NCBI GenBank assembly: GCA_964651225.1
Contig: CAZYYD010000001.1
Location: 50,811-114,810 of the forward strand
Direction of reading: 5' to 3'
DNA length: 64,000 nucleotides
Source of the DNA: an uncultured Ignavibacteriaceae bacterium
GTDB taxonomy: Bacteria > Bacteroidota > Ignavibacteria > UBA10030
Position numbers and translations under genes: made by a program. The notes beneath the pieces were generated by a model. It searched no databases. It was given only the letters and a program-made list of their open reading frames with translations, and was not told the DNA's origin. Below are positions 12,717-64,000 of this stretch, piece after piece (positions within the stretch are counted from its first letter, which is position 1; every line of letters begins with the position of its first letter).

Positions 12717-12745
12717 TCTCCTATTTCCTTTTTCCTGCTCGCCAA

Positions 12746-20461: not shown

Positions 20462-20498
20462 TAACGTGTGGACGCTACTGGGATCGAACCAGTGACCT
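20462..20498. repeat. 37-nt direct repeat copy 2
   Basis: Exact match to 20134..20170. Confidence 0.8.
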
Positions 20499-20543
20499 CG
20501 TGCTTGTAAGGCACGCGCTCTGAACCAGCTGAGCTAAGCGTCC
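20469..20543 (-). tRNA. tRNA-Val (anticodon TAC)
   Basis: Hand-folded cloverleaf: GGACGCT TA GCTC AGCTGGTTCA GAGC G CGTGC CTTACAA GCACG AGGTC ACTGG TTCGATC CCAGT AGCGTCC A. CCA is not encoded. Confidence 0.85.
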
Positions 20544-47385: not shown

Positions 47386-47883
47386 TTAAAAATTGTATAG
47401 GACATAAAGTCCCGCGCTGGGATTAAGCGTCCCGGAAGTAAAATAATATGTAGGATAGTACAGTATAAAACCGCCGCACAAATTATTACGTTTCTCTTTT
47501 GTCATAAAAGGTGTTTCAATACAAGTTGCCAGTGCTAATCTATTCTTCGTGTCTTCTTTAGATGATCCATAGACTCCAAAACTCGGTCCGAGAAAAATAT
47601 TGAATCCTGGAGCATTTGCCAAATAATAATGGACATCAAAACCATAGGTATATTCTGATTCCTTCTCCAATTTGATCCACCCTCCGGTTACTCGGTAGCG
47701 AAAGTCATTGGAGGTATAACAATATGTAATACCTGTACCTGCAACCCAACTTGCCTGGAATCCAAACGAGGAAAAAGATCGTTGTGATTTATTTTGAGAA
47801 GTATCCTGAGCACGAAGACTTGAAATGAGAAACAAAAAAGGAATAATAAAGATAAACGAAGACTTAAAGAGATGGTTAGTCAT
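47386..47883 (-). CDS. outer-membrane beta-barrel protein (OmpA-like/porin-type small barrel)
   Basis: A signal peptide (MTNHLFKSSFIFIIPFLFLISSLRAQ), alternating amphipathic beta-strand pattern and a C-terminal aromatic residue (..YVLYNF), in an AT-rich segment. Confidence 0.5.
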   Translation of the reverse strand: MTNHLFKSSFIFIIPFLFLISSLRAQDTSQNKSQRSFSSFGFQASWVAGTGITYCYTSNDFRYRVTGGWIKLEKESEYTYGFDVHYYLANAPGFNIFLGPSFGVYGSSKEDTKNRLALATCIETPFMTKEKRNNLCGGFILYYPTYYFTSGTLNPSAGLYVLYNF

Positions 47884-49194: not shown

Positions 49195-51090
49195 ATGAAT
49201 CGATTTACCTTTCTTTTCATGCTTGGTTTCCCATGCATGCTTTTTGCGCAGACACTTGAACCATTCCAAGCAGTTGTACGAACTACGAATCCCCAACGCG
49301 TACAACGAGAGAAAAGAGCAAGAGTTCTTTTTGATCATGCTGAGAATAATGTATTAAACTTAAATATTAGCTCGTCTCAACAATCAAAGAATTCAAATAG
49401 TGCGCATACGACCGTTTCTCCCTCTGAAGGATTCATACTTGGAACAACGGATTATGACTACGTCTGGAACAGCGGTTCACGCCGTACTATCGTGGTCAAC
49501 GCTGCAGGAACAAATGTTCACATGGTATGGATGGAACGAAATCTATCATTGATTCCTCCTAGGAATAAATGCACAATGAAATATGGTTACTACGATTGGT
49601 CCCTTGGAACGGTTATTACGGGATATCCAGAACAGAATGTTATCACAGCTTCCGGTTTAGGCAATGTTGATGTATTTTGGGGTGGCGATAAAGATAATAT
49701 TGCAGCAATATGCGGAGGTACACCAATCTGGTTTGCCATTGATCGTAGCCCTGGTGCTGCAAATTTCACTAAAACTAACATTGGAGTAAATGAGTCAACA
49801 GGTCCAGCGATGACGATTGATAATTCAAACGCTGGAACAATTTATTTGACTGGTAATAACGGCGCTCGTAACAACTATTTCGTTCAAAAAAGTACAGATT
49901 ACGGCAGCACGTGGGCAATGTGTGATTCGCTCTTAGTCCATTCTCCATTTGTCACTGGCAACCTGGATGTTGAGGTCCTTGTCGCTCCTAATGGAAACCT
50001 CTTCCTTCCTACCTGTTTATCAGGTTATGGAACAATAAACCAGGTGAGTGCTGATAGTGCCGATTGCGTTGGATATTATAAGTCGACGGATCAAGGCAGC
50101 CACTGGACATGGACAACCATAGCACATGATGGCGATTTGGTTGCTTATGGATCAGAGAACGTTACTAATTATTTTGAAAATTTCGGATCCATGGATGCAT
50201 CGATCGATAAGGACAACAACCTGCATATCGTGATACAAGGGTATGGACAAAAATTAGCCTATGGAACAACAGATATTGTAGCCGCGAATTATTTTGGTAC
50301 ATTATACTGGAAGACCGGTCAATCGGGCTTTAAACTGATTTCCCGCCCGGAAGATGCTCATATTACGGATTTCGACAGCTCTTACTATACAGAGATGTTT
50401 TCAGGGAATGCATTTGGTCATCCATATCCGTCTATTTCAGTTGATCCAGCGGGTGATGGATTGTTTGCGATCTGGTCGCAAACTCGTATTACTAATGGAA
50501 AGCTTGATGTGGCATATAATGGAATTTCGCAATATGATCTCTGGTACAGCTTTTCCACGAATGGTGGTACGAGCTGGTCGACGGCGCAAAAATTAGCGAA
50601 CAGTGATGGCGGGTTGTTTGTCTCTGCTGCTCCAAAATTAACTGTCATCGATGGAAACACCTATAGGGCACATTGCATCTATATTGCTGATACCACTGCT
50701 GGTTGCGCCGTGGTTGGTCAAAGTGCCGCAACGCAAGTACCAGTCGTCTATCGAACAATTGATTTCTTCTATGAAGGGTCTATAACTGGTTCATCCCCTA
50801 TAGTTGATAATCATTCTGGATTACCAAAATATTATAGTCTTCTGCAGAATTATCCGAATCCCTGCAACCCGTCTACACGGATCGAATTCGCACTCCCGAA
50901 GCATTCTTTTGTGACATTGAAGGTGTATGACGTGCTCGGGAAGGAAGTTGCCACCCTATTGAATTCGGCGAAAGAGGCTGGAATATACACGACTACTTGG
51001 AATGCTGAGGGCTGTCCAAGCGGTGTCTATTTCTATCGGCTCTCCGCTGGATCCTATACGATGACGAGAAAGCTCCTGCTATTGAGATAG
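49195..51090 (+). CDS. secreted BNR/Asp-box repeat protein with T9SS C-terminal sorting domain
   Basis: A signal peptide (MNRFTFLFMLGFPCMLFAQT), several Asp-box repeats (STDYGSTW, STDQGSHWT, STNGGTSWS), and a C-terminal about 80 aa matching the Por-secretion CTD pattern (LLQNYPNPCNPSTRIEF...VYDVLGKEVATL...GVYFYRL). Confidence 0.8.
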   Translation: MNRFTFLFMLGFPCMLFAQTLEPFQAVVRTTNPQRVQREKRARVLFDHAENNVLNLNISSSQQSKNSNSAHTTVSPSEGFILGTTDYDYVWNSGSRRTIVVNAAGTNVHMVWMERNLSLIPPRNKCTMKYGYYDWSLGTVITGYPEQNVITASGLGNVDVFWGGDKDNIAAICGGTPIWFAIDRSPGAANFTKTNIGVNESTGPAMTIDNSNAGTIYLTGNNGARNNYFVQKSTDYGSTWAMCDSLLVHSPFVTGNLDVEVLVAPNGNLFLPTCLSGYGTINQVSADSADCVGYYKSTDQGSHWTWTTIAHDGDLVAYGSENVTNYFENFGSMDASIDKDNNLHIVIQGYGQKLAYGTTDIVAANYFGTLYWKTGQSGFKLISRPEDAHITDFDSSYYTEMFSGNAFGHPYPSISVDPAGDGLFAIWSQTRITNGKLDVAYNGISQYDLWYSFSTNGGTSWSTAQKLANSDGGLFVSAAPKLTVIDGNTYRAHCIYIADTTAGCAVVGQSAATQVPVVYRTIDFFYEGSITGSSPIVDNHSGLPKYYSLLQNYPNPCNPSTRIEFALPKHSFVTLKVYDVLGKEVATLLNSAKEAGIYTTTWNAEGCPSGVYFYRLSAGSYTMTRKLLLLR

Positions 51091-51595: not shown

Positions 51596-52684
51596 TCAAA
51601 TAATATTCCCAGTCGTTGTGTCAAAGAAATGTGATTTTGTCATATCGAGGAATATTTTTCTCTTCTCTCCCACCTTTAATTCCGTTGGTTTCATCCGTGC
51701 AATAATTTGAGACTTTCCTAACGTGCTATAGACAAATATTTCATTTCCCATTGGTTCTACAACATCAATATGGACATGAAGATTGGAACTATTTTTCGTA
51801 TTCCCCATATCTATATGTTCAGGACGAATTCCAAGCCACACCTTTTTTCCGATGTACGGCTGAAGCGTTTTTTGATTTCTTTTCGGGACTTCAAGCGAGA
51901 CCATCGATTCACTTTCAACGAAAAGCATCTTATTTCTTGTGAGAATAATCCCTTCAAGAAAATTCATGGACGGGCTGCCAATGAATCCTGCAACAAATTT
52001 ATTCCGCGGCTCATTATAAAGGTTCAATGGCGTATCTGTCTGCATGACGATGCCATCATGCATAACGACGATTCTATCACCCATCGTCATTGCTTCTGTC
52101 TGGTCATGGGTGACATATATCATGGTTGCTCCAAGCCGTTGATGTAATTTCGATATTTCAATCCGCATCTGTACCCGAAGCTTCGCATCAAGATTCGAGA
52201 GTGGTTCATCGAACAAAAAGACTTTCGGTTTCCGCACGATAGCTCTGCCCACCGCGACACGCTGCCGCTCTCCTCCTGAAAGAGCTTTGGGTTTTCGATT
52301 CAAGTATTCTTCAATCCCGAGGATACTTGCCGCTTCAAGAACACGTTCATCAATCTCTTGTTTTGAATATTTTCGTAGTGTCAAACCGAAGGCCATATTC
52401 TCATACACGGTCATATGAGGATACAGGGCATAATTCTGAAAGACCATTGCGATGTCACGGTCTTTGGGCGGTATATCATTCATAATTTTATCATCGATCA
52501 TCAAAATGCCGTCGGTAATATTTTCCAGACCCGCAATCATCCGTAACGTTGTTGATTTACCGCACCCTGACGGACCTACGAGGACAACAAATTCTTTATC
52601 TCGTACGTCGATGGAGACACCTTTGACAGCCACCACACCGCCTTCATACTCCTTTTTGATATTTTGCAGTTTAACGCTTGCCAC
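51596..52684 (-). CDS. ABC transporter ATP-binding protein, MalK/UgpC/MsmK type (sugar importer ATPase)
   Basis: Walker A (GPSGCGKST), signature LSGGERQRV, Walker B (FLFDEPLSNLD) and a C-terminal TOBE-like regulatory domain. Confidence 0.85.
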   Translation of the reverse strand: MASVKLQNIKKEYEGGVVAVKGVSIDVRDKEFVVLVGPSGCGKSTTLRMIAGLENITDGILMIDDKIMNDIPPKDRDIAMVFQNYALYPHMTVYENMAFGLTLRKYSKQEIDERVLEAASILGIEEYLNRKPKALSGGERQRVAVGRAIVRKPKVFLFDEPLSNLDAKLRVQMRIEISKLHQRLGATMIYVTHDQTEAMTMGDRIVVMHDGIVMQTDTPLNLYNEPRNKFVAGFIGSPSMNFLEGIILTRNKMLFVESESMVSLEVPKRNQKTLQPYIGKKVWLGIRPEHIDMGNTKNSSNLHVHIDVVEPMGNEIFVYSTLGKSQIIARMKPTELKVGEKRKIFLDMTKSHFFDTTTGNII

Positions 52685-53582
52685 AATTCTCTCCCCTCAA
52701 TGCTCCATTTCGAAATTCATTATTTATGCTTTCAATAGCTTGTTCCGTAAGAGTATTTTTCTCCACAGCGACTTTGTTCCAGACTACGGAAAGGATGATC
52801 GATGCAGAAAGGATGCCCAGGACGACACTCAAAGATATTACAATACTGAGAGGATAGAAATGATCCAAAAGCATCTTCGTGCCAACAAACGCCAGCACTA
52901 CCCCCACTCCATATTTCACAAAAATGAATAATTTGTGGATCTTCTCAAGAACAAAATAGATCGACCGTAATCCTAAAACTGCTAGCAAGTTTGATGAAAA
53001 AATAATAAATGGATCCGTCGTTATACCAAAAACAGCTGGAACTGAATCAACGGCAAATACTACATCAGTTGTCTCTATCACCAGGAGCACCACAAAGAGA
53101 AGTGTGGCATACCAGTGTCCTTGTCCTTTGACAAAAAATTTGTTACCTGAATTTCCCTCTTTGACACGAAATACTTTTTTGAACATGCGCGTGACAGTAT
53201 TGTTTTCGGGATGGAGTTCAATCTCTCCACCGAGAGCTATTTTATATCCAGAATATACAAGGAAGACCCCAAACAGATAGAGCACCCATTCAAAATGCGA
53301 GACAAGTTCAGTACCGAGATAAATCATAATTCCACGCAAAATGATCACACCAATGATACCATAATTCAGAATACGCCGTTGTTGTATCGGAGTGATTTTA
53401 AAGAAAGAGAAAATAAGCAGAAATACGAACAGATTATCTACACTCAATGATTCTTCAATGACATAACCAGTCATAAATTCCATAGCTTTTACTTGACCTA
53501 GTTCAAGGTACACACCGAGATTCACCATGAGGGCAAGAAGGATCCATAATACTGTCCAGGCTATAGCTTTCCGTAAACTCAT
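52671..53582 (-). CDS. TerC/Alx-family integral membrane protein
   Basis: The family-typical pattern MEFMTGYVIEESLSVDNLFVFLLIF. The start is trimmed to MSLRKA (53582) so that it does not overlap citF. Confidence 0.75.
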   Translation of the reverse strand: MSLRKAIAWTVLWILLALMVNLGVYLELGQVKAMEFMTGYVIEESLSVDNLFVFLLIFSFFKITPIQQRRILNYGIIGVIILRGIMIYLGTELVSHFEWVLYLFGVFLVYSGYKIALGGEIELHPENNTVTRMFKKVFRVKEGNSGNKFFVKGQGHWYATLLFVVLLVIETTDVVFAVDSVPAVFGITTDPFIIFSSNLLAVLGLRSIYFVLEKIHKLFIFVKYGVGVVLAFVGTKMLLDHFYPLSIVISLSVVLGILSASIILSVVWNKVAVEKNTLTEQAIESINNEFRNGALRGENCGKR

Positions 53583-53602
53583 AGTGGAATCGATTTCAAG
53601 TA

Positions 53603-55177
53603 TTATGGGATAGTGGGATGCACACTGTCTAGGAGTGTCCCGTCCACCCATTGAACGACAGCAACGACATTATCTTTAGTTACCTTTGGCAATTCGGGTT
53701 TCCCGCCGCATATTTCATCTACCTCGCGCTGTATGTCTTCAAGACTTCGGATAGGTAATGAGCTGCTTGATAATTTCTTATTTAGATCGTGCCGTAATGG
53801 ATTTATGGCGATCCCACGCTCTGTGATGACAACATCGATCATTTCTCCAGGCCCACAGAGCGTCGTGACACGATCAACAATGATGGGGACACGATCCCTG
53901 AAAGACGGTATCGCGAGAATAACACATTTTCCGAATAAACAATCCTGCCATCCACCAATGCCATGGAGCAAGAGCCCATCCGAATGGGTAACGACATTTG
54001 CATTAAACTTGATATCTACTTCCGTGGCGCCTAAAACCACAGTATCCAGCATGGATGCAAAATTGCCTTTCCCGTGAAAATTATAACTCGTAAACGGGCT
54101 TGTAGAAACGTGCCTTGGATTTTCACGCAACGACCGAATACCTTCTGCATCGAATGCTTGACCATCGAGAATGTAATCAGTCAATCCTTCTTCCAGCATT
54201 TCAGTAAGATATTGTGTGCTGCCGCCGCGAATAAATCTTGCTTTTATTCCTTGGGATTTCATTCGTTCTTTCAGCAATACAAGGAATGCAAGATTGATTC
54301 CTCCCGCACCCGCTTGGAACGAAAATCCGTTCTGCATAATCCCCGACTCTTCGACAAACTGTGCAATATATCTTGCAATAAGAATTCTATCGGGGCTTTT
54401 CGTTATTTGAGTCGTTCCGGAAACAATCTTCGAGGCATCACCCAACGAATCTACTTCAACAACGTAGTCAACATTGTTTCCCTGGATATGCCATGGAATG
54501 CAGGGAAAATCCACTAACGTATCTGTCACAACGATCACCCTGTCGGCATATTCGGAGTCTCCCAAGGCAAAACCAAGGGGACCGCAGGCAGACTTGCCCG
54601 CGACACCATTTGCATTACCAAAAGAATCGGCACTCGGAGCAGCGATCACGGCTATATCAATATGCACCTCTCCATCCTGTATGGCTCTATATCGTCCTCC
54701 GTGAGAGCGCAGGACCCCCATCCCTTTCATCTTCCCTTCCGAGGCATACCGTCCCAGCGGTCCATTCATGCTTCCTTCAATATGATGGATCGTTCCGTCT
54801 TCCAAATATTTTATCAAATATTCATGGCACGGGAATGATGCACTCGGGAACCAGCGGATATTCTTCACTCCCATTTCTTTGATGGTATCGAACAGAATAC
54901 ACGTTAATCCATCACCATCACGCAGATGATGGTGGGTCGAGATTGTCATGCCGCTCTTCAGCCCTGATTTCTTCAATGCTTCTTTGAGAGTTTGAACGAG
55001 CTTATTTCCGTCGGATGGGTATTCAGTGCAGCTTCGAATCGGAGGGGCAGCCATGAGACGATCAGGTCGGTATTTGCCAATACCTTTAAATGGAACTGCG
55101 GGAATCCCATTGACGATGGTGGGGACAGAACGTCCTGCAGCATTCTTGACGAGTTTTGCCTGGTGTGTGTTTGTCAT
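53603..55177 (-). CDS. citF: citrate lyase alpha subunit (citrate CoA-transferase)
   Basis: Resemblance to CitF along the whole length (GMTISTHHHLRDGD, SFGNANGVAGKSACGPLG, HSDGLLLHGIGG). Confidence 0.8.
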   Translation of the reverse strand: MTNTHQAKLVKNAAGRSVPTIVNGIPAVPFKGIGKYRPDRLMAAPPIRSCTEYPSDGNKLVQTLKEALKKSGLKSGMTISTHHHLRDGDGLTCILFDTIKEMGVKNIRWFPSASFPCHEYLIKYLEDGTIHHIEGSMNGPLGRYASEGKMKGMGVLRSHGGRYRAIQDGEVHIDIAVIAAPSADSFGNANGVAGKSACGPLGFALGDSEYADRVIVVTDTLVDFPCIPWHIQGNNVDYVVEVDSLGDASKIVSGTTQITKSPDRILIARYIAQFVEESGIMQNGFSFQAGAGGINLAFLVLLKERMKSQGIKARFIRGGSTQYLTEMLEEGLTDYILDGQAFDAEGIRSLRENPRHVSTSPFTSYNFHGKGNFASMLDTVVLGATEVDIKFNANVVTHSDGLLLHGIGGWQDCLFGKCVILAIPSFRDRVPIIVDRVTTLCGPGEMIDVVITERGIAINPLRHDLNKKLSSSSLPIRSLEDIQREVDEICGGKPELPKVTKDNVVAVVQWVDGTLLDSVHPTIP

Positions 55178-55184
55178 AGTCGTA

Positions 55185-56384
55185 CTATTTCACCGAATAA
55201 ATGGTCGCAAGCGACAAGATACGCTGTGCTCTTTTCACCACAGGAGCATCGATCATTTTTGAACCCAACGCAACGACACCCGATCCATTCCGCTGTGCTT
55301 CAGTGAATGCATCGACAACACGTTGGGCATATTCGATCTCCGTCGCTGTAGGAGTAAATGCATCGTGAATAATTTGTATTTGCCGAGGATGGATGCACCC
55401 TTTCCCTTCGAAACCGATCGCTTTCGCATCCAGAACACTTTGACGCAGGCCTGCATCGTCCTGGACATCAGAGAATACTGAATCGAGCGCCTGGATTCCT
55501 GCCGCTTTTGCCGCATTGATGATTGCGCTTCGGGCAAACAAACTTTCAATTCCATTTTTCGTCCGTTCAACACCTATATCGGCCGTATAGTCTTCCAATC
55601 CGATGGCCAGACCGCAATTCCATGGGCTCGCAGAGGCAATTTCAAAAGCCCGCACAACGCCAAGGGCACTTTCAATGATCGGGATCAGAAAGACACTGCG
55701 TTTGCTTTTCCGTTTCTCGAAGAGTGCATTCACCTCTTCATCAACATTTTTAATTTGAGCAGCGGATTCACATTTCGGAAGAAGAATCGTCTCAACATTA
55801 TGATGAACGACCTGGCGCACATCTTCAAGACCTTCCGGTAAGGGATTGATCCTGACCATTCGTTCTGCATCTCCAAAATTTACATTCATGAGAGCATTTC
55901 TCACGAGAATGCGCGCGGCATCTTTTTCTGACGGAGCGACACTGTCTTCGAGATCAAGGATGATGCCGTCGGGTTGATGCAATCCTGCATTCAGAAAATA
56001 CTGCGGCTCATTTCCCGGAAGATAAAGCCGCGTCCGGCGTAGACGATCGCGCGAACTGTTTTTTGCATACTCCATCTCGCCCAAAAGATAATTCGTAATG
56101 AATTGTGGATCTGCTCTTTTGAGCGCTGCTTCTACCCTCGCCGCTAGAACGAAGGGAACCGCACCTGCATCTTCAACACTAACGATCGCATCCTCCACAC
56201 CGAAATGTTTGAGGATGTCGGTAATTTGAGACCGGATGGACTTCCCGTAGAGCGAGTCCACTTTGCTTTTAACGTCAATAGCTATTCCGCCGTTCGTCCT
56301 CAGTAATACGTGGACGTGGCAATCCGAGCGAATCGTCGTACCGGTTCTTCCGGCTGATCCGACTTTATGTTTTTGAGCTTTCAT
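55185..56384 (-). CDS. citDE: citrate lyase gamma (acyl carrier) - beta (citryl-CoA lyase) fusion protein
   Basis: The N-terminal about 95 aa resemble CitD (...VEDAGAVPFVLAARVEAALKRA). The rest is HpcH/HpaI-aldolase-family CitE (LYLPGNEPQYF...IILDLEDSVAPSEKDAAR). Confidence 0.7.
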   Translation of the reverse strand: MKAQKHKVGSAGRTGTTIRSDCHVHVLLRTNGGIAIDVKSKVDSLYGKSIRSQITDILKHFGVEDAIVSVEDAGAVPFVLAARVEAALKRADPQFITNYLLGEMEYAKNSSRDRLRRTRLYLPGNEPQYFLNAGLHQPDGIILDLEDSVAPSEKDAARILVRNALMNVNFGDAERMVRINPLPEGLEDVRQVVHHNVETILLPKCESAAQIKNVDEEVNALFEKRKSKRSVFLIPIIESALGVVRAFEIASASPWNCGLAIGLEDYTADIGVERTKNGIESLFARSAIINAAKAAGIQALDSVFSDVQDDAGLRQSVLDAKAIGFEGKGCIHPRQIQIIHDAFTPTATEIEYAQRVVDAFTEAQRNGSGVVALGSKMIDAPVVKRAQRILSLATIYSVK

Positions 56385-56405
56385 GGTCGTTCCATCGAAC
56401 ACATG

Positions 56406-57377
56406 TTACCAGGCATATGCCTCTGGTGCTTCGCCACCCGGACCCGGCCAGATGGCTTCCACTGTTTGAATTTCATCATCCGTTAATGTTGTTTGCAGCG
56501 CATCCACCATGCCACGGACCTGCTCAACTGTTCGCGACCCTATAACCACGGAACTGATCACGGGATTCTTCAGGAGCCACGCGAGCGCGACTGCTTCAGG
56601 TCTCTTCCCGATGGAGGTGCAATATGTTTCATAATCTTCAACTTGTTTCCGATGCTGCGACAGCGCCTTTTGGACCGCCTCTGTTTTTTTTCGCACGCCC
56701 TTTTCATCATTCAGAATACCGGCAAGCAACCCTTCCGCTAACGGACTCCAGGGAATGATGCCAATGCCATGCTCTCGGCATGCTGGAATAACTTCCAGTT
56801 CGACCATTCTCTTCGTCAAATTATACAAACTTTGTTCCGAGATGAGGCCTCCAAGATTTCTCTCTCGTGCGGTGAATTGCGCTTCAACAATATTCCAAGC
56901 CGCAAAATTACTGCTCCCCATATAGGTGATCTTCCCTGCATGAAGAAGTTGATCCATCGCTGACCAGATCTCATTCCATGGGGTCGACCGATCAATGTGA
57001 TGCATTTGATACAGGTCGATATGATCCGTCTTAAGACGGCGTAAACTTGCTTCGCAGGCAGAACGGATATGATATGCGGAGAGCCCCCGTTCATTGATCC
57101 CTTCACCCATTTTCCCGTACACTTTTGTTGCCAGGACAATCTTTTCACGTCGTCCCCCGCCGCGGGATAGCCATTTCCCGATGAACTCTTCCGTTCTTCC
57201 TCGATGACCGATCCCGCCATAGACATCGGCAGTGTCAACAAAGTTTATCCCTGCTTCAATCGCCGTGTCGAAAATGGCAAAGCTGGTCTCTTCATCAACT
57301 AATTTGCCGATATTCATTGTGCCGAGGCATAGTCTGGAGACCCGTAAGCCCGAACGACCGAGTGTTGAATATTCCAT
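56406..57377 (-). CDS. aldo/keto reductase
   Basis: AKR family pattern (LGRSGLRVSRLCLGTM, INFVDTADVYG). Confidence 0.85.
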   Translation of the reverse strand: MEYSTLGRSGLRVSRLCLGTMNIGKLVDEETSFAIFDTAIEAGINFVDTADVYGGIGHRGRTEEFIGKWLSRGGGRREKIVLATKVYGKMGEGINERGLSAYHIRSACEASLRRLKTDHIDLYQMHHIDRSTPWNEIWSAMDQLLHAGKITYMGSSNFAAWNIVEAQFTARERNLGGLISEQSLYNLTKRMVELEVIPACREHGIGIIPWSPLAEGLLAGILNDEKGVRKKTEAVQKALSQHRKQVEDYETYCTSIGKRPEAVALAWLLKNPVISSVVIGSRTVEQVRGMVDALQTTLTDDEIQTVEAIWPGPGGEAPEAYAW

Positions 57378-57380
57378 GTA

Positions 57381-58364
57381 TTATTTGACCAATTCAGATA
57401 ATTGAGAAGCGACATCAAAAAGATCCATCCCCTTTGTAAAAGGAAGACAGACTCCTGTCGTGAACCGAACCTTATCGATCCATGGAAGTGGAATACTGCT
57501 CATCCCGTTCATTGCGCCACTGATGGCACCGACAATCGCCGAGATCGTATCAGCATCTCTTCCAAAATTTCCGCTATAAATAATCCCACGCCTAAATTCT
57601 CCATTCGTCAATTTCACTATTGCCAGAGCTGAAGCGACCGCTTCCGGTGAGACTGCTTTGTATTCTGTCCACAACGCGTCATGGAGCGGTTTCCAAGCTG
57701 CCTCCAGTGTTCTCTTCTCTTCGATAATGTTTAACACTTTCGTAAAAGTAAATCTCAACCATGAATCTTTCGGAGTAACATTCATCGCAGTTTGGAATAT
57801 TTCATCGACTGAAGCCCCTACCATGGCAACGGCAATAGAAACCGCAACTGCCTGTGCGCCCCACAGACCATCGCGGGAATGACTAATGCGCGCATCGATT
57901 TCGGCCAACCGGGCAGCTCGTTCCGGATCACCGGCACAGACAATCCCGATCGGCGTGACACGCATTGCCGCTCCGTCGCTCATATAATGGGAATTATACA
58001 CACCGGACAGAGGGGGTAAAACGCCGCGACGTATATTCGCTGCTGCTTCTCGCTCACTCGCGCCACCTCGTTTCAACTCTGAAAGCGGGAGAACATGCGT
58101 TTTCCAACTCTCAAGAACATCAGCGTCGGTCAAATTCCCTTTCGCGTTGATGAGTGTTTGAGCTGTCAGCAATGCGAATTCAGTGTCATCTGTTCCCGGT
58201 GCAGGCTTTTCCGAAAAATCCATCGTAATGCCGTATTGGAAATGATAATCGGGCGAGCGCGCGATATCACCGAATGAATCACCGATTGCGTGCCCCACAA
58301 GGCACGCCCGAGCTCTGTCTTGTAACAACGTTTTATCTTTTACGAGACCTTTTTTTGTCAGCAT
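57381..58364 (-). CDS. ADP-ribosylglycohydrolase-fold protein, paralog 1 (canonical motifs present)
   Basis: GHAIGDSFG, GTDDTEF and GRDADTISAIVGA motifs are all present. Confidence 0.8.
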   Translation of the reverse strand: MLTKKGLVKDKTLLQDRARACLVGHAIGDSFGDIARSPDYHFQYGITMDFSEKPAPGTDDTEFALLTAQTLINAKGNLTDADVLESWKTHVLPLSELKRGGASEREAAANIRRGVLPPLSGVYNSHYMSDGAAMRVTPIGIVCAGDPERAARLAEIDARISHSRDGLWGAQAVAVSIAVAMVGASVDEIFQTAMNVTPKDSWLRFTFTKVLNIIEEKRTLEAAWKPLHDALWTEYKAVSPEAVASALAIVKLTNGEFRRGIIYSGNFGRDADTISAIVGAISGAMNGMSSIPLPWIDKVRFTTGVCLPFTKGMDLFDVASQLSELVK

Positions 58365-58373
58365 AGTGCACTT

Positions 58374-59717
58374 TCAATGTTGAGGTGAATATTTCGCGAG
58401 TTTCGATGTCCGGTTTGCAAGATCGCTGAGCAGAGCATGATCGAATCCTTTCAGACTGCTTCGAACTTTATTATTCAGAGGAGAGATCCATTTCGATGGA
58501 AGGTTCTTTGCACCGAGCATCGTACCCATGATCGAGCCAACCGTTGCGCCATTACTATCTGTATCCCAACCTCCCATCACCACATTGCAAATAGCCCGCT
58601 CATAGTCCCCTTTTGCGGAAAGCAACGCAGCAACGATGAGGGAGGCATTGTTAATCGTATGGACCCAGTGATATGTTCCGAATTTTGCATAAAGAGCATC
58701 AACTGTTGCATCCCACGATTGTTTTTGAATTGGCAAAGATGTGACAAAGCGAATTGCTTCTGCGAACCGGGAGTGAGGCGGGACAAACGATAGTGCATCG
58801 TGTATGACAGCTTTTTCGTCAGGAGAGCGAAACGATGCGGCAATTGCAGCGGCAAAAAACATCTCCCCATACATGCCATTACGAACATGACTCAGTCTGG
58901 CATCACGCCAGGCGAATTCCGCAGCGCGTGCCGGCTGTGTGGGGGAAATCCAGCCCCAGACATCCGCCCGTATCTGGGCGCCAATCCATTCGCGGTATGG
59001 ATTTCTTACGATTGCCGTCTCTGGCGGTTGGAGACCGGTAAGCCGGTTCACATACGCGACACGCTCCGCCGTAAATGTTGAAAGAACCGGCGCTAAGTCT
59101 AACCAGGTTTGGATGATATGCTCCGATGTCAATGCTTCACCATATCGCTCGTATGCCGACAAATTCAGCATCGGATAATTCAAGTCATCATCCTCTGGCA
59201 TGCATTCGATGTTCTCTTTGAGACTTTCTTTGCCGTTGTGTCTATTCCAAGGGTATTTTTGCAAAAGAGAATCGGGTATTCCGCGTCCTGTGATATATTC
59301 AGAAATGGGCCATGTCCCGTTCGAGGACAGCAATTCGATAACCCCCGACCGGGGTGTTTTTTCGATCGGTTTCCCGAGCAGACATCCAGCACTTCTGCCA
59401 AGCCACCCTCCAAGAATCCGATCTGCAACGAACGAGGAGGTAAACGAAGGAACAGCGTCAGGTGTGATCGTACATTGTTGCACGATCTCGCTCCAGAAGG
59501 TCGGTTCATTACCTTCGTTGTGAACACGAGAAGGAGTTTTTTCAAGTTTGCGATAGAATTCTTCCGCTTCACTACGGAATTTCTCTTCACCCAGATGAAG
59601 GTTTTCGATTCGGACCCATTCGCGGCGAAGTTCGGTAACATTATTCCCCTCTTCCTCCCTCTGTTGTAATTCATGGTTAATCCGTTCGGCGATGTCTATC
59701 CAGGAGATTTTCATCAT
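58374..59717 (-). CDS. ADP-ribosylglycohydrolase-fold protein, paralog 2 (about 110-aa N-terminal extension; first metal-site Asp replaced: GRSAGCLLG)
   Basis: The ARH fold has the C-terminal GGWDTDSNGATVGS motif intact. Motif 1 reads G-C instead of G-D. Confidence 0.75.
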   Translation of the reverse strand: MMKISWIDIAERINHELQQREEEGNNVTELRREWVRIENLHLGEEKFRSEAEEFYRKLEKTPSRVHNEGNEPTFWSEIVQQCTITPDAVPSFTSSFVADRILGGWLGRSAGCLLGKPIEKTPRSGVIELLSSNGTWPISEYITGRGIPDSLLQKYPWNRHNGKESLKENIECMPEDDDLNYPMLNLSAYERYGEALTSEHIIQTWLDLAPVLSTFTAERVAYVNRLTGLQPPETAIVRNPYREWIGAQIRADVWGWISPTQPARAAEFAWRDARLSHVRNGMYGEMFFAAAIAASFRSPDEKAVIHDALSFVPPHSRFAEAIRFVTSLPIQKQSWDATVDALYAKFGTYHWVHTINNASLIVAALLSAKGDYERAICNVVMGGWDTDSNGATVGSIMGTMLGAKNLPSKWISPLNNKVRSSLKGFDHALLSDLANRTSKLAKYSPQH

Positions 59718-60763
59718 AATATTTTTTGACCTGCCAACGTTGAGATCTCTTCAGTGAGCGCGAGATAATCCTTCCCTGCGAGTGAAGGAACACAAATACC
59801 CTTCAAAACTCCGATAGCCTTCAACCAACTCTCACTGGCAATTGACATGTTCTGCCTTGCACCGACGAGTGCACCGACTAATGCAGGAAGAGTTTCTGCG
59901 CTTTTTGCAAAACCTGTCGCTGTCAGGAGCGCTGTTTCAAATGATTCTCCGTGACTTTGAGCAATACTCAAGGTGAGTGCCAACGTTTCAGGTGCGGCAT
60001 TTCCATAACTGTATTCGCGATTCACAATTCTCTTGTGCAGGTCCGGTACAAGGGAAAAGATGGACCTGCTTTGACCTGCAATGCTCAGTGCCTCATCGAC
60101 GGTCCGTTTGATCCATGAAGACTCCGGGAGGTACTGTCGCGCACGCTCTATGGCTTCTTTCATGGTTTTTCCGTCACACGCCAGCGATATCGCGACAGCC
60201 ATTGCCTGCGCAGCCCAAATTCCATCCTCACTGTTTGTCACTGAAGCATCAATCTCCGCTAACCGTGCGGCTTCATCCGGTCGGCCTGAACAAAGAATTC
60301 CAATCGGGACGGATCGGGACATTGCACCATCATCAAAATAATGCGGATTTTCTTTTCCGCATTGCGGCGGAAGTATTCCATGGTTCAAATTATGAAGTGC
60401 CGCCTGCGTGCTCACGCCTCCTCGTATGGGATCCTTTGATAGAGCAAGATTCATCCATTCTCTCAACACTGATTCCTTATACGAGCTTACCCCAGAAGCC
60501 AATAACGTTCCTGCAGTAAAAGCTGCCCACTCAGTGGGAACCGTTGGTGAAAGACTTAAATGATCCGCCGGCTGATTGAGCGTGAATGGCATCGGTGTAA
60601 CGATCACATTCGTCGTCTCCGATGCTGTATCCATTTCTCGGCGTTTTCTTCTCGTCCATGGAGGAAGAAGAATGCTGCGATGAAACATGGCTGTCCAACT
60701 CATTGCATCGCCGATGGCGAGGCCAATCATGGCATTACGCGCATGTTGCTGGACGTCGCTCAT
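59714..60763 (-). CDS. ADP-ribosylglycohydrolase-fold protein, paralog 3 (lacks the TDDT and GxDxDT motifs; probably non-canonical or inactive)
   Basis: GLAIGDAMS motif 1 is present, but no second Asp cluster exists. It overlaps both neighbours by 4 nt (ATGA). Confidence 0.75.
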   Translation of the reverse strand: MSDVQQHARNAMIGLAIGDAMSWTAMFHRSILLPPWTRRKRREMDTASETTNVIVTPMPFTLNQPADHLSLSPTVPTEWAAFTAGTLLASGVSSYKESVLREWMNLALSKDPIRGGVSTQAALHNLNHGILPPQCGKENPHYFDDGAMSRSVPIGILCSGRPDEAARLAEIDASVTNSEDGIWAAQAMAVAISLACDGKTMKEAIERARQYLPESSWIKRTVDEALSIAGQSRSIFSLVPDLHKRIVNREYSYGNAAPETLALTLSIAQSHGESFETALLTATGFAKSAETLPALVGALVGARQNMSIASESWLKAIGVLKGICVPSLAGKDYLALTEEISTLAGQKIL

Positions 60764-61752
60764 GGTTTTTTACTCCATGATTGTGCGAGCAAGGAAAGAT
60801 TATCTGCCACTACAAGAATATTCATATTCTTCACAGCACTGATACAAATTCCGCGTGAAATAGAAATTCGTTTGACCCAGTGTTCAGGGATCGCTTGAAT
60901 CCCATGCGACGCACCGCAGATCGCACCCGCAATTGCAGCGATCGTATCGGTATCCCTGCCCATATTTACTGCACCGAGCACAGCATCTTCAAATATTCCC
61001 TTTGCCGCTGCGACGATCCCGAACGCAAGTCCAACCGCTTCGGGAGCGACATCGGGCCAAAAATAATAAGAACATGCGAGTGATGTATACAACGGCGCTA
61101 ATGAACTCCAGACATCAGCACATGAACTCCCAAGAGAAATTCCACGAGTGATAGAGGATGCTGTCCAGGAATTTTTCGGGACAACATCCAGCGCTGCTTG
61201 AGCGACCTTTTCGAAGGATGCTCCGGTCATGGCAACAGCAATAGCCGCGGCCACAGCTTGCCCGCAATATATTCCCTCACCGGCATTGGCAACAACGCCA
61301 TCTTCTTTCGCAAGATGCGCTGCAAAATAAGGATCGCCTGCAGAAGCGATACCATACGGAGCAACGCGCATTGCCAAACCGTCACTCCAACTGTGGACAT
61401 GCTGACCGGAAGCGGGGGGCTGCAAACCGTCTAAGAGATTGTGAAGCGCAATGATTTCACTGAATCCGGCTCCTTTGTATGTATTCGCTGAATTGATGAT
61501 ATCGCGACGATACGCATCTGCGACCATGGCCGATGTCAGGTCTCGCTTATACTGTAAAAGTAATTTGGCACCGAATAACGCATATTCCGTATCATCACTT
61601 CCACCTTGCTCGTCCGAAAGAAAATCGGTCACTCTGCCCCAGCGTGCAAAGATTTCAGCGGGGGTTTTACCTTCTGTCGGACTGCCGAGAGCATCTCCCA
61701 CGGCGAGACCAATGAAAGAACCGCGAGCCCTCTCTTGAAGAGTGATCACCAT
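60760..61752 (-). CDS. ADP-ribosylglycohydrolase-fold protein, paralog 4 (canonical motifs present)
   Basis: GLAVGDALGSPTEG, GSDDTEYALF and GRDTDTIAAIAGA are all present. Confidence 0.8.
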   Translation of the reverse strand: MVITLQERARGSFIGLAVGDALGSPTEGKTPAEIFARWGRVTDFLSDEQGGSDDTEYALFGAKLLLQYKRDLTSAMVADAYRRDIINSANTYKGAGFSEIIALHNLLDGLQPPASGQHVHSWSDGLAMRVAPYGIASAGDPYFAAHLAKEDGVVANAGEGIYCGQAVAAAIAVAMTGASFEKVAQAALDVVPKNSWTASSITRGISLGSSCADVWSSLAPLYTSLACSYYFWPDVAPEAVGLAFGIVAAAKGIFEDAVLGAVNMGRDTDTIAAIAGAICGASHGIQAIPEHWVKRISISRGICISAVKNMNILVVADNLSLLAQSWSKKP

Positions 61753-63107
61753 ACCTCCCCGTGTTTTTTGTAACGAGAGAGAACAATATTACTTTCATGT
61801 TCGATCCGCTGAGCTGCTTGATCTACAGAAAATCGACCGGCAAATAATTCCTGCAGTATGGGATTGGCAACACGGCTTTTCCATTCTTCATAGCCTGGTG
61901 CACCAAGCCAAATTCCTACCCCAAGGGTTGAAACTGCAGAACAGGTGACATCCCATCCTCCGAGGGTATCTTGAAATTCAGGCATGGATAAACACGATTT
62001 CCTCGCTGGGATCATCCAATCATTCAAGGCGAGACGAGCTGTGTTCTTTGAGCTCAGCATGAAATCAATGAACATCATTGCATCTTTTGCTCGTTTTGAT
62101 TTTTTAGGCACACTCAAGGTTTGTGTACTTGCACCGTACTGCTGTGTTTTTGCTTTGAGCGGGGGCATCACTCCCCAGCGGAATTCTTTCGGCGCGTTCT
62201 CGACGAGCTGCTGTCTTCCCCATGATCCAATGCCCACGAGCATCGCATATCTTCCGCCGAAGAACCCGGGGATCATTCCTGCACCGGTCTCGCCGATACT
62301 CGCCGGTGAAACAGACTTATCTTTATATATCATATCGACGATGGTCTGGAGCAATTTCTTTTCCTCCTCCTTTACCCTCACGACATAATGATCCCCCTCC
62401 TTTTGGAAGAAAGAACCGCCGAAGCTGATGGAGGTGTTCATGATAATGTTTGCGGAGTTGCGCAGTCCGAATCCAGCACCATATTGATCGATGACCCCGT
62501 CACCATTGGTATCTCTCGTCAAGCGACGTGACGCTGCTTGCAGATCATCCCATGTCCATGGATGATCAATGGTAGGAGGAATGATCCCCTCTTTTTCCAG
62601 AAGAGATCTGTTATAGAGCACCACAAGCGATTCAATAAGAAACGGAATGCCTCCCACTTCTCCATTTGGTCTCGTTACTGTTGCCCATGCCACATTGAGA
62701 ATATCGCTTTTCATTTCTGCAGAAATAAACGGGGAAAGATCTGTCAGGTATCCGCGCATTGCATAATCAATAATGACGGAGGATTCATAATGGAAGATAT
62801 CAGGCACATCCCCGGTCTCGAATGCCGTTATCAAATAATCATGCGCAGAGTTCCACGTTCCTTGGATGTACTCAACCTGCATATCGGGATGAACTGCATT
62901 CCATTCATTCACGATGGACCTGTTTGTTGCGATCGCTCGTTCTTGCCACGCAAGACTCACAAGACGGAGCGGAAGATTCTGCTCGTTGTCCTTGTTCCGC
63001 ATGGACCAAAATACCAGTGCAGCCCCGATCATGGCAACAGAGAGTATGATAAGAATTCGTTTCACTATCCTTTTAACGCTCCAGAGACCAATCCTGTTGT
63101 AAACCAT
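61746..63107 (-). CDS. ABC transporter substrate-binding protein, family 1 (carbohydrate-type), lipoprotein or anchored
   Basis: N-terminal TM/signal region and SBP_bac_1-like fold, adjacent to MalG/MalF-like permeases. Confidence 0.8.
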   Translation of the reverse strand: MVYNRIGLWSVKRIVKRILIILSVAMIGAALVFWSMRNKDNEQNLPLRLVSLAWQERAIATNRSIVNEWNAVHPDMQVEYIQGTWNSAHDYLITAFETGDVPDIFHYESSVIIDYAMRGYLTDLSPFISAEMKSDILNVAWATVTRPNGEVGGIPFLIESLVVLYNRSLLEKEGIIPPTIDHPWTWDDLQAASRRLTRDTNGDGVIDQYGAGFGLRNSANIIMNTSISFGGSFFQKEGDHYVVRVKEEEKKLLQTIVDMIYKDKSVSPASIGETGAGMIPGFFGGRYAMLVGIGSWGRQQLVENAPKEFRWGVMPPLKAKTQQYGASTQTLSVPKKSKRAKDAMMFIDFMLSSKNTARLALNDWMIPARKSCLSMPEFQDTLGGWDVTCSAVSTLGVGIWLGAPGYEEWKSRVANPILQELFAGRFSVDQAAQRIEHESNIVLSRYKKHGEVW

Positions 63108-63901
63108 TTACGCAAGAAGATGAACAAAACAATTGATGGTATGGTTGCGATAACGCTCGCCGCTGCAAGGGGACCGGTCCTTGCTTGTCCTTCCATTCCC
63201 GTGTATCGTGCCAATTCCACCTGCAATGTTGCGAGCGCCGGACTTTTCATCAAGACGAAAGCAAAGAAGAATTCATTCCATGCTGAGATGAAGGCGAAAA
63301 GTGCCGATGCACCGATCGCGGGAAGGAGCAATGGCATCAACACCTTGAAGATCACTTGAGATCGACTCGCTCCGTCGATAACAGCCGCTTCCTCCAATTC
63401 CACGGGAATACTTTTCACATACCCGTGCATCATCCATAGCACAAACGGTAATGACCAAACGACATAAATCAAGGTGAGTCCCATGAGAGAATCCGTCAAT
63501 CCGATATGCCTCAACAGGACATAGAGAGGGATCATCACCAAGATGACAGGAAATATTTGCGACGCGAGAATCCATCCCAAGATAGCATTGTTGACCATGG
63601 ATTTATAGCGCACCATCGCATAGGCCGACGGAACCGCGAGAAGCACAACGAGCATGGTCGATATCACGCCAACAACAACACTGTTCCACATACTTCGAAA
63701 GATCTGTTGACCCTTGATCACGGAAACATAGTGGTCGAATGAGATCTGTTGGGGCAATATCGTCGGAGATCCGGAATAAATTTCCTGCGTCGATTTCAAT
63801 GAACTTGCCACGACCCACAACAACGGGAACAGTAAGAATATGAGGTAGAGAATGATCAATCCATGAATCATAGTTTTTGAAAGTGGACTCATAGTCATCA
63901 T
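63065..63901 (-). CDS. carbohydrate ABC transporter permease (MalG-like)
   Basis: Six TM helices and the EAA loop region (VELEEAAVIDGASRSQVFFKV). Confidence 0.85.
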   Translation of the reverse strand: MMTMSPLSKTMIHGLIILYLIFLLFPLLWVVASSLKSTQEIYSGSPTILPQQISFDHYVSVIKGQQIFRSMWNSVVVGVISTMLVVLLAVPSAYAMVRYKSMVNNAILGWILASQIFPVILVMIPLYVLLRHIGLTDSLMGLTLIYVVWSLPFVLWMMHGYVKSIPVELEEAAVIDGASRSQVIFKVLMPLLLPAIGASALFAFISAWNEFFFAFVLMKSPALATLQVELARYTGMEGQARTGPLAAASVIATIPSIVLFIFLRKWFTTGLVSGALKG

Positions 63902-64000
63902 GATTCATTTCTCTCGTGTAATTGCAGTCTGATATACATGAACAACATCACCGAAAGGATAATGACCATAACATTGCCAATCGCTGCGGCATAACCGATA
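63898..64000 (-). CDS. carbohydrate ABC transporter permease (MalF-like), 3' end only; the gene continues beyond the window
   Basis: Hand translation of the minus strand gives ...IGYAAAIGNVMVIILSVMLFMYIRLQLHERNES*. The stop overlaps the downstream permease start as ATGA. Confidence 0.55.
   Translation of the reverse strand, partial: IGYAAAIGNVMVIILSVMLFMYIRLQLHERNES

Follow-up and report, generated by a model that had tools for sequence, protein, structure and literature searches.

Why should a bacterium encode four consecutive proteins of the ADP-ribosylglycohydrolase (ARH) fold between a sugar importer and a citrate-lyase-like unit? The question is raised by a 64,000-nt stretch of DNA from an uncultured Ignavibacteriaceae bacterium (contig CAZYYD010000001.1 of GenBank assembly GCA_964651225.1, positions 50,811 to 114,810 of the forward strand), hereafter called the window, in which a cluster of twelve genes runs along the minus strand from the window edge at 64000 to 51596. 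A sequence-only reading of the stretch, made from its letters and open reading frames, had seen in this cluster the uptake and stepwise deconjugation of an (ADP-)ribosylated or ribose-linked compound, followed by reduction and C-C cleavage of an acyl-CoA. The comparative analysis reported here indicates that the operon is real and conserved, a conclusion that is rated much higher than the pathway picture as a whole. On balance, the picture favoured from gene content is that of a conserved catabolic locus for a ribose-containing conjugate, of which the window would hold the cytoplasmic and import half; confidence in any specific substrate is much lower than in this general scheme.

Organization of the cluster

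The twelve genes lie, all on the minus strand from 64000 to 51596, where the sequence-only reading had placed them in a tightly packed row (open reading frame list, Pfam, NCBIfam, gene junctions), and annotation with profile hidden Markov models of Pfam and NCBIfam confirms the functional label given to each. The window edge cuts the first gene, so that only the C-terminus of a MalF-like ABC permease is seen (63898-64000); this piece is hydrophobic and in frame, and its stop codon overlaps the start of the gene for a MalG-like permease of the CUT1 family (63065-63901; PF00528, 73 bits). Next comes an extracytoplasmic solute-binding protein (SBP) of the SBP_bac_1 family and of the CUT1 oligosaccharide type (61746-63107; PF01547, 129 bits; PF13416, 95 bits), with a hydrophobic anchor at the N-terminus and a probable start at 63032. 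The four ARH genes follow without interruption: ARH-A (60760-61752; PF03747, 176 bits), ARH-B (59714-60763; PF03747, 140 bits), ARH-C, of 447 aa (58374-59717; PF03747, 166 bits over residues 103-408), and ARH-D (57381-58364; PF03747, 172 bits). Downstream of them are encoded an aldo-keto reductase (AKR; 56406-57377; PF00248, 241 bits), a fusion of a CitD-like acyl carrier protein (ACP) with a CitE-like lyase (CitDE; 55185-56402, probable start 56384; PF06857 at residues 20-97 and PF03328 at residues 123-339), a CitF-like acyl-ACP:carboxylate transferase of the citrate lyase alpha-subunit family (53603-55177; PF04223, 450 bits), a membrane protein of the TerC/Alx family (52671-53651, probable start 53582; TIGR03718, 336 against a cut-off of 246) and an ABC ATPase of the MalK/UgpC type (51596-52684; NF008653 UgpC, 493 against 432; PF00005, PF17912 and TOBE also match). 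Together, the two permeases (BPD_transp_1), the SBP_bac_1 protein and the MalK/UgpC ATPase, which ends in a TOBE/OB tail, make up an importer of the CUT1 type.

The junctions ARH-A/ARH-B and ARH-B/ARH-C are ATGA overlaps, and SBP and ARH-A overlap by 4 or 7 nt; the remaining genes are separated by 3-9 nt when the starts of the longest open reading frames are used, and by at most 32 nt with the starts of the gene caller (63032 for the SBP). About 260 nt after the MalK stop codon, a terminator-like hairpin with a 12-bp stem followed by a T-run (51334-51307, minus strand) probably marks the end of the operon. The gene beyond it (49105-51090, plus strand) is convergent with the operon.

The cluster had been expected to continue past the window edge, and this is indeed the case. 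A 26-kb contig of the Joint Genome Institute (L005) overlaps the window and encodes a protein that, counted from the start codon set by the gene caller, is identical to ARH-A; ahead of MalF it contains three further genes on the same strand. They encode a protein of about 790 aa with a C-terminal domain of the beta-lactamase fold (serine hydrolase), a 351-aa esterase that bears both a signal peptide and a sorting tail of the type IX secretion system (T9SS) and matches esterase models of the CE1/polyhydroxybutyrate (PHB)-depolymerase type, and a 741-aa LVIVD propeller protein, also with a T9SS tail. The full MalF-like gene stands on the same contig (L005:7004-7852) and matches PF00528.

Conservation of the module

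A scan with one genome per species yielded 35 loci with an ARH-B relative. Genes in the related loci were labelled by BLAST to the window proteins, with spot checks against Pfam and NCBIfam; some of the contigs, which come from metagenome-assembled genomes (MAGs), are fragmentary or frameshifted, and many relatives of the source organism, itself a member of the Ignavibacteriota, are deposited as 'Bacteroidota' MAGs. Across about 30 species of Ignavibacteriota the order esterase, beta-lactamase-fold protein, MalF, MalG, SBP and ARH-A to ARH-D is fixed. MalF orthologs, 79-94% identical, precede MalG in the related loci of this phylum, where MalG orthologs share 78-91% identity (49-51% in Actinomycetota); for the SBP, orthologs in Actinomycetota are 37-41% identical. 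CitDE lies directly after ARH-D or after the AKR in 19 of the 25 non-redundant loci with at least 3 kb downstream of ARH-D, and CitF is then adjacent to CitDE wherever the contig continues. The CitF orthologs are 73-86% identical across Ignavibacteriota and 65-74% in other lineages.

In one lineage (L084:13362-14795 and L093) a 477-aa AtuA-like protein (PF07287, 45 bits) replaces CitDE and CitF after ARH-D, and a Cof-type HAD sugar phosphatase is encoded between LacI and MalF.

The module is also found outside the phylum. Arachnia, Georgenia sp. M64, Actinopolymorpha sp. B9G3 and several uncultured Actinomycetota have loci for LacI, MalF, MalG, SBP, ARH-A, ARH-B, a third ARH, a family III CoA-transferase (CoA_transf_3) and a free CitE-like lyase, the last two standing in for the ACP and CitF. 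Identities to the window proteins are about 52% for ARH-A, 30-38% for ARH-B and 34-37% for the free lyase, compared with the CitE domain. In Georgenia every junction from the first ARH to CitE is a 4-nt overlap. Arachnia and Georgenia have in addition a large secreted esterase of the type seen in Ignavibacteriota, which in Georgenia includes a beta-propeller domain. A single NCBIfam esterase model is matched by the esterases of Ignavibacteriota and by that of Georgenia, and signal peptides are present in both. Another actinobacterial feature, seen at one locus, is a deoC aldolase gene together with an aldehyde dehydrogenase gene, divergent from the LacI gene. Only in the lineage of Georgenia sp. 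M64, ribokinase and CoA-transferase are separated by the gene of a 693-aa protein whose C-terminal domain is FGE-sulfatase/EgtB-like (L044:13184-15265); this gene overlaps both neighbours by 4 nt.

In Streptomyces sp. NBC_00091 the order is ARH-A, ARH-B, a different fourth paralog (D'), ARH-C, ribokinase, CoA-transferase and CitE, and the identities to the window proteins are 48% (ARH-A), 36% (ARH-B) and 47% (ARH-C). Here, as in Georgenia, 4-nt overlaps join ARH, kinase, CoA-transferase and CitE. The locus sits in a conserved core region, between gltBD and lgt/trpAB. Beside ARH-A, and divergent from it, lies a gene for a metal transporter of the VIT1 family (L049:7624-8355; also in L118, L128 and L129), and three soil metagenome contigs repeat the Streptomyces layout with VIT1 adjoining.

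Marine (TARA) and other metagenome lineages have the order ribokinase, MalF, MalG, SBP, MalK, T9SS esterase, ARH-A, ARH-B, ARH-C, D', CitDE and CitF; further metagenome lineages carry LacI, MalFG, SBP, ARH-A, ARH-B, D', ARH-C, CoA-transferase and CitE. The thioester-lyase pair comes right after the ARHs in about 24 of the 32 long metagenome contigs. Just upstream of the ribokinase, the marine loci (L083:1-1026, also L089 and L095) have a T9SS gene of the PorV/PorQ family, which is preceded by a protein of about 341 aa with no match in Pfam or NCBIfam. The record names of some of the MAGs and contigs that bear the locus mention groundwater or TARA (marine) sampling.

Overall, the module occurs in no fewer than two named phyla, the Ignavibacteriota and the Actinomycetota, as well as in several metagenome lineages that are unassigned. 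The association between ARHs and CitE survives a non-orthologous swap of the carrier system, from ACP and CitF to a CoA-transferase, which is hard to explain unless they serve one pathway; judging from these comparisons, the link with the CitE-type lyase is not due to chance. The possibility of a chance juxtaposition, which the sequence-only reading had left to a search for conserved neighbourhoods, is thus not supported, since the ARH set, the lyase and the SBP recur together across lineages.

The four ARH proteins

All four ARHs match PF03747 over the domain, with 140-176 bits against a cut-off of 26.2, and none of them has a signal peptide. ARH-A retains the catalytic Glu and both Asp motifs: none of its 35 orthologs departs from GDALGxPxE, SDDTE and RD(T)DT, and those from Actinomycetota, Streptomyces and marine lineages are 48-57% identical to it. 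ARH-A is predicted to be a catalytically competent ribosyl hydrolase and the partner of ARH-B. The latter has no catalytic Glu; in each of its 35 orthologs G-D-T-D-T is replaced by K-S-[GA]-[ED]-T, and the first Asp of the C-terminal motif is lost. Its sequence is under clear constraint, with 57-72% identity among the Ignavibacteriota orthologs. The active site is degenerate, and these features point to a pseudoenzyme, or a partner without a catalytic role, that has been conserved. The AlphaFold2 model of ARH-B, with a predicted local distance difference test (pLDDT) score of 86, has the ARH fold, with a template modelling (TM) score of 0.6-0.7 to DraG and to the ARH-related protein of T. thermophilus (2CWC). 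Close relatives of ARH-B are few: out of 1.84 billion representatives in the protein library, only 81 clusters reach E<=1e-30.

ARH-B always comes immediately after ARH-A wherever the locus reaches upstream of ARH-B. Moreover, four natural fusion proteins of 675-776 aa (P0326, P0332, P0339 and P0344) combine the two: the N-terminal half is an intact ARH-A (43-49% identity), and the C-terminal half corresponds to ARH-B (33-38%), down to its degenerate motifs. The fusions, the invariant order and the ATGA overlap are together good evidence that ARH-A and ARH-B act as one unit, an enzyme with a pseudoenzyme partner. A further protein of 3045 aa (P0374) contains 31 separate stretches that match ARH-B at about 25% identity and has the appearance of a giant repetitive ARH-like protein.

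ARH-C has a helical N-terminal extension of about 100 aa. Of its 33 orthologs, 32-33 keep the motifs G-x-x-x-G-K-P-x-E, E-D-D-D and W-D-T-D-S, and the protein is predicted to be catalytically competent. Its AlphaFold2 model (pLDDT 81) finds MJ1187 and DraG as best matches in the PDB, at 16-17% identity; orthologs are 47% identical in Streptomyces and 35% in the L046 locus. Proteins of this type are far more widespread than those of the ARH-B type, as 7968 of 8000 candidates passed E<=1e-5 in the protein search, and relatives of ARH-C probably also exist outside the module. ARH-D is 39% identical to ARH-A and keeps TDDTE and RDADT; in 31 of its 32 orthologs the N-terminal motif reads G-D-S-F-G-D-I-A-R-S, without the catalytic Glu. 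Outside Ignavibacteriota, in the actinobacterial and marine loci, the fourth ARH is the D' paralog, which has the full catalytic set.

Structural comparison with Foldseek matched the models of ARH-B and ARH-C to MJ1187, DraG, 2CWC and ARH3, with a probability of 1.00, TM scores up to 0.78 and 11-18% identity to solved ARHs; it gave the fold and, for these two models, no closer functional relative. Some residues differ from those of DraG. The DraG loop G-N-G-A-A-M-R reads [SD]-D-G-x-A-M-R in ARH-A, ARH-B and ARH-D, with the Asp invariant, and Lys or Arg is found where DraG has Asp97, which is mutated in the D97N structure 2WOE. It may be speculated that a basic residue near the leaving group would suit an anionic aglycone.

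The lyase unit and the accessory genes

The CitE domain scores 285.9 bits with TIGR01588, well below the citE equivalog cut-off of 443.4, and the best solved relative of CitDE is not a bacterial citrate lyase, but human CLYBL (5VXC, E=4e-46), a citramalyl-CoA lyase. The ACP domain is borderline for citD (62.9 against 63.5 for TIGR01608, 65.7 against 65 for NF009726), and the Ser of its [RK]-S-D-C motif, a candidate for attachment of the prosthetic group, does not vary among 22 sequences. The cycles of CitDEF and of CoA-transferase/CitE pairs exchange and regenerate an acetyl thioester. By analogy, the unit should swap the acetyl group of the carrier for a carboxylic acid, cleave the 3-hydroxyacyl thioester and regenerate the acetyl thioester without ATP.

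The absence of citC, citX and citG next to the unit, remarked on in the sequence-only reading, extends to the whole 64-kb window, to the 21-kb L005 stretch and to the gene lists of the related loci, and no citrate transporter is present at the locus. The idea that the ARHs take the place of CitX/CitG, making or recycling the ribosyl-containing prosthetic group of the ACP, was rejected: the ARH set is kept in Actinomycetota and Streptomyces, where the ACP is absent and free CoA is used, and thus the ARHs do not substitute for the missing genes.

Other genes of the operon are less constant. An AKR ortholog is found at the same position in only about eight related Ignavibacteriota loci, and several other lineages have ribokinase in the module in its place. 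The AKR was dropped as a clue to the substrate, since the gene is not conserved in the module and its solved relatives 8XR2 and 8JWK (E=1e-107) carry only a generic name. TerC, a member of the TerC/Alx metal-efflux family, is present in only about four related loci; MalK is the last gene in five related loci and directly follows the SBP in the marine ones. From this distribution, the AKR, TerC and the position of MalK are judged accessory and lineage-specific. The occurrence of two unrelated metal-efflux families, VIT1 and TerC/Alx, near metal-dependent ARHs may be a coincidence or may reflect a metal-chelating substrate. Control of TerC by a Mn riboswitch was considered and discarded, as the only Rfam family in the window is one tRNA and none is present in seven related loci.

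The imported ligand and the released sugar

The ligand of the importer could not be read from SBP homology: the best solved relatives, Lmo0181, AbnE, Lin1841 and GacH, bind unrelated oligosaccharides and are too distant (E=1e-20 or weaker). The kinases of the module are more informative about the sugar. Ribokinase accompanies the actinobacterial version of the module in four checked lineages, and PfkB kinases encoded within the cluster exceed the cut-off of the ribokinase equivalog TIGR02152 (299.65 bits) in the marine lineage (325.2 bits), in Streptomyces (317.7 bits) and in another metagenome lineage (351.6 bits); those of Georgenia and of the L047 locus reach 274-276 bits.

ARH enzymes cleave at C1'' of ribose by means of a two-metal centre that binds the 2'' and 3'' hydroxyls. 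A ribokinase is needed only if unphosphorylated ribose is released, which, together with the CUT1 importer and the C1'' chemistry, points to ribosyl rather than ADP-ribosyl conjugates. The sequences are consistent with a ribosyl substrate, although they fall short of proof.

A number of more specific substrates were considered, namely aceric acid or apiose from pectin, feruloylated arabinofuranosides, teichoic acids, methanopterin side chains, bacillithiol-type glycosyl-malate, citrate siderophores, 2-deoxyribonate and O-acyl-ADP-ribose; none finds support beyond weak hints in the neighbourhoods, that is GH43 or GH127 genes beside three loci and deoC beside one. The former are furanosidase-type genes, GH127 once and GH43 twice (L006/L007:17350-20007, L045:2770-3741 and L084:3-1766). 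They are too rare for a conclusion and might possibly hint at plant-derived furanosides.

Proposed pathway

The steps proposed here all derive from gene content and context. Outside the cell, the secreted esterase of the CE1/PHB-depolymerase type, with its T9SS tail, and the beta-lactamase-fold protein would trim an esterified substrate, and the CUT1 importer formed by MalF, MalG, SBP and MalK would take up the resulting small glycoside. In the cytoplasm, the two-metal sites of the ARH fold would hydrolyse the ribofuranosyl bond and release D-ribose in free form, together with an aglycone that either is a hydroxy-carboxylic acid or gives rise to one; ARH-A would work in complex with the pseudoenzyme ARH-B, and ARH-C and ARH-D (or D') would act on a second bond or as further subunits. 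CitF would then load the acid onto the ACP domain of the CitE fusion, swapping out acetate, and the CitE domain would perform a retro-Claisen cleavage to acetyl-ACP and a carbonyl product, most likely a 2-oxo acid, so that the acetyl carrier is renewed without ATP. In Actinomycetota the same chemistry would take place on free CoA, through the family III CoA-transferase and the CitE-like lyase. The ribose would be phosphorylated by the ribokinase of the cluster in Actinomycetota and some other lineages, and in the source organism presumably by a kinase encoded elsewhere.

This scheme can be carried one step further, in a tentative way that is clearly less probable than the general picture: the ARH quartet may be a dedicated multi-subunit ribosyl hydrolase (the pair of ARH-A and ARH-B, then ARH-C and ARH-D or D') for a widespread and so far undescribed class of natural products or polymers, in which a glycosidic bond joins ribofuranose to a hydroxy-polycarboxylic acid (citrate-, malate- or citramalate-like) and which are further esterified.

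The sequence of events put forward in the sequence-only reading, i.e. import, release of a ribose moiety and C-C cleavage of a thioester, fits the data, especially the equivalog-level ribokinase within the module; other parts of it have to be changed. ADP-ribose or its conjugates are unlikely substrates, given an importer of the oligosaccharide type and a ribokinase that implies free ribose. The four ARHs are not equivalent, and a stepwise action of four paralogs is doubtful, as ARH-B is without catalytic and metal residues, ARH-D is without the Glu, and the fusions of ARH-A with ARH-B point to a complex. Reduction by the AKR, restricted to the few loci mentioned above, would be accessory and not a core step. 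Finally, as the ACP is fused to CitE, the intermediate in the source organism would be an acyl-ACP, with an acyl-CoA being proper to the version of the pathway in Actinomycetota.

Alternative explanations

Several findings weigh against the proposed pathway. The Streptomyces locus has no importer or esterase nearby, so that the substrate could be endogenous in that genus. There is no ribokinase within the window, and citX and citG, needed to obtain the holo-ACP, are not in the locus. CitF reaches 493.3 bits with TIGR01584, nearly at the threshold of 501.45 for true citrate lyases, and plain citrate may for this reason be a candidate for the acid. Finally, the lyase pair is missing beside the ARHs in six of the 25 Ignavibacteriota loci, as well as in L046, L084, L093 and L109, and thus the acid-cleaving branch may be dispensable or encoded elsewhere.

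The first of these findings leads to the alternative that survives best, namely that the module recycles or detoxifies an endogenous ribosylated metabolite, such as a damaged cofactor or a cell-envelope precursor, with the importer serving for re-uptake in some lineages. The Streptomyces genes, which are situated in the conserved core flanked by gltBD and lgt/trpAB and have neither transporter nor esterase beside them, agree with such a role, and so does the recurrence of this layout, with VIT1, in the three soil contigs. However, most lineages pair the module with an ABC importer, regulators of the LacI/AraC type and secreted esterases with a T9SS tail or a signal peptide, which is the signature of nutrient acquisition, and an endogenous role is considered unlikely.

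Slightly less likely still is the coexistence of two independent systems, ribose scavenging by importer and ARHs on one side and an ordinary fermentative citrate or citramalate lyase on the other, without a shared substrate. The pairing of the two is kept in Streptomyces and in the marine lineages and survives the replacement of ACP and CitF by a family III CoA-transferase in Actinomycetota; in Georgenia and Streptomyces the 4-nt overlaps tie ARH, kinase, CoA-transferase and CitE to one another, and the window lacks what an ordinary citrate lyase would be accompanied by, that is a citrate transporter and citC, citX and citG, with a CitE score of 286 against 443. These points outweigh the near-threshold CitF, the borderline CitD and the loci of Ignavibacteriota and several other lineages in which the ARHs stand without the lyase, to which L003 can be added, where the lyase genes are on the opposite strand.

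It is also doubtful, to a somewhat greater degree, that the ARHs act on a non-ribosyl bond, with the two-metal site binding an alpha-hydroxy-carboxylate or another cis-diol furanoside, such as apiose, to prepare a branched sugar acid for the lyase. The motifs do differ from those of ADP-ribose-binding ARHs, and the window has an AKR and no ribokinase; conversely, ribokinases of equivalog level belong to the module in several unrelated lineages, and the GH43/GH127 furanosidase genes, which would suit such a substrate, adjoin only three of about 60 loci. Very improbable, lastly, is a role of the ARHs as true ADP-ribosylhydrolases on proteins, nucleic acids or small molecules (regulators, antitoxins or immunity proteins), since the membership of all four in PF03747 and the listing of the Streptomyces coelicolor proteins SCO2028-2031 as putative ADP-ribosyl hydrolases (PMC5087735, PMC9411070) are countered by the lack of an ADP-ribosyltransferase partner in any examined locus, by scores far below the DraG and Tri1 equivalog cut-offs (29-67 bits against 337 for TIGR02662 and 19-55 against 490 for NF041672), by the altered Asp97 position and GNG loop and by a context of importer, ribokinase and thioester lyase. 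A function in defence or as a toxin-antitoxin system was rejected in the same way: the four ARHs, CitDE, CitF and TerC have no match among the PADLOC defence models, and no locus has a transferase gene.

Relation to known systems

The gene mix had not been recognized as a known pathway in the sequence-only reading, and the literature search agrees with this, as it returned, among the papers open to searching, no characterized pathway and no description of this gene combination. The proposed catabolic locus looks like a module of known families and of a generally known kind, a sugar-conjugate catabolic operon, in a combination that is uncharacterized.

The closest genes in the literature are SCO2028-SCO2031 of S. 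coelicolor, four consecutive genes called uncharacterized DraG/ARH homologues (PMC5087735, PMC9411070, PMC13036486). The ARHs of Streptomyces sp. NBC_00091 lie between gltBD and lgt/trpAB, and trpX is SCO2038, so that their position fits the numbering SCO2028-2034; mapped in this way by synteny, the Streptomyces module would correspond to SCO2028-2034, with SCO2028-2031 as the ARHs. This version differs from that of the window in the order of its ARHs (A, B, D', C) and in the absence of importer, esterases, ACP, CitF, AKR and TerC, and the literature treats the Streptomyces genes as candidate ADP-ribosylation erasers and not as a catabolic operon. SCO2028 and SCO2030 were inactive on an ADP-ribosyl-uracil probe (PMC13036486), which is neutral with respect to a ribosyl hydrolase role.

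The published idea that comes nearest to the module is that of the rus polysaccharide utilization loci (PULs) of Bacteroidetes, which contain ribokinase and ribose-liberating hydrolases and, in some cases, ADP-ribosylglycohydrolase genes and carbohydrate esterases, with substrates that are undefined (Glowacki et al., bioRxiv 10.1101/574913). The likeness to the present module lies in this core of ribokinase and ribose-liberating hydrolases, with ARH genes and esterases in some of the PULs. Conversely, rus PULs rely on SusC/SusD-type uptake (RusC/RusD) and on the RusR regulator, and no thioester C-C lyase branch has been reported for them, whereas the locus described here is equipped with an ABC importer of the CUT1 type and combines a fixed ARH quartet, pseudoenzyme included, with such a lyase branch. 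No SusC/SusD-type genes occur in the L005 gene list or in the related loci, and therefore the locus is not a rus PUL.

DraG, ARH1/ARH3 and Tri1 share Pfam family and fold with the ARHs of the module, and ARH-A and ARH-C have the same Glu and Asp/Thr two-metal motifs. The differences are the low identity (the 11-18% found with the ARH-B and ARH-C models), the absence here of a transferase partner and a context that implies free ribose. Similarly, citrate lyase CitDEF, encoded in citCDEFXG operons of enterobacteria and lactic acid bacteria, resembles the lyase unit in the CitD-type Ser of the ACP, in CitE and CitF and in the proposed acetyl-carrier cycle; the unit is unlike it in the fusion of ACP and CitE, in the lack of CitC, CitX and CitG in locus and window, and in the use of a CoA-transferase with a free CitE in other lineages. 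The itaconate enzymes Ict/Ccl (RipA/RipC), human CLYBL and M. tuberculosis Rv2498c follow a comparable logic, in which an acid activated by CoA transfer is cleaved by a CitE-family enzyme to acetyl-CoA and a 2-oxo acid. RipC is indeed the second-best NCBIfam match of CitE, with 150-186 bits against an equivalog cut-off of 375; in the module, however, there is no hydratase, and the pair is tied to ARHs and a sugar importer. E. coli yegTUV encodes a nucleoside-type MFS transporter, the single ARH-family protein YegU and a PfkB kinase, and its function is also undefined. The module shares with it the combination of an ARH-family protein with a PfkB sugar kinase and a transporter, and differs from it in that yegTUV has a single ARH, a transporter of the MFS type and no thioester lyase. 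No DNA similarity to the window was found in E. coli genomes. What is distinctive in the module is the fixed ARH quartet with its pseudoenzyme, the coupling of ARHs to a citrate-lyase-like unit and the interchange between ACP- and CoA-based versions.

ARH-fold proteins have been studied almost wholly as erasers of ADP-ribosylation, and Streptomyces is noted for many 'orphan' DraG homologues without matching transferases. The locus provides four such orphans with a metabolic context that can be tested, made of importer, ribokinase and thioester C-C lyase; it predicts an enzyme-pseudoenzyme pair, backed by natural gene fusions, and shows that a citrate-lyase-type ACP system and a CoA-transferase/CitE system can substitute for each other. 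Identification of the substrate would add a catabolic pathway and possibly a new class of natural compounds. If the quartet were indeed a multi-subunit ribosyl hydrolase, a sizeable branch of the 'ADP-ribosylhydrolases', including SCO2028-2031, would consist of metabolic glycosidases and not of erasers, and the module would represent a new route, independent of ATP, by which such conjugates are converted to ribose, acetate and a 2-oxo acid. Experiments are feasible, as the module is present in cultured strains of Georgenia, Actinopolymorpha and Streptomyces.

Other features of the window

The rest of the window is of a housekeeping nature, with thrABC-like genes, kdp, cytochrome bd, PriA, LarC and WaaA. 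The convergent gene beyond the hairpin (49105-51090, plus strand) encodes a 661-aa protein with a T9SS sorting tail and no other recognized domain, and it recurs on L005. A gene of the transposase-like UPF0236 family (45863-47089, minus strand; PF06782, 39 bits) lies about 4.5 kb downstream from where the operon ends; after it come small open reading frames without family match (47386-48520). At 22166-25126, on the minus strand, lies the gene for a 986-aa protein that is made up nearly throughout of PAS domains and has no recognized output domain, and the sole Rfam match in the window is a tRNA gene at 20469-20543, on the minus strand. The kdp genes (6871-15280, minus strand) are arranged in the order kdpC, kdpA, kdpB (the P-type ATPase), kdpD and kdpE, unlike the kdpA-B-C order of E. 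coli.

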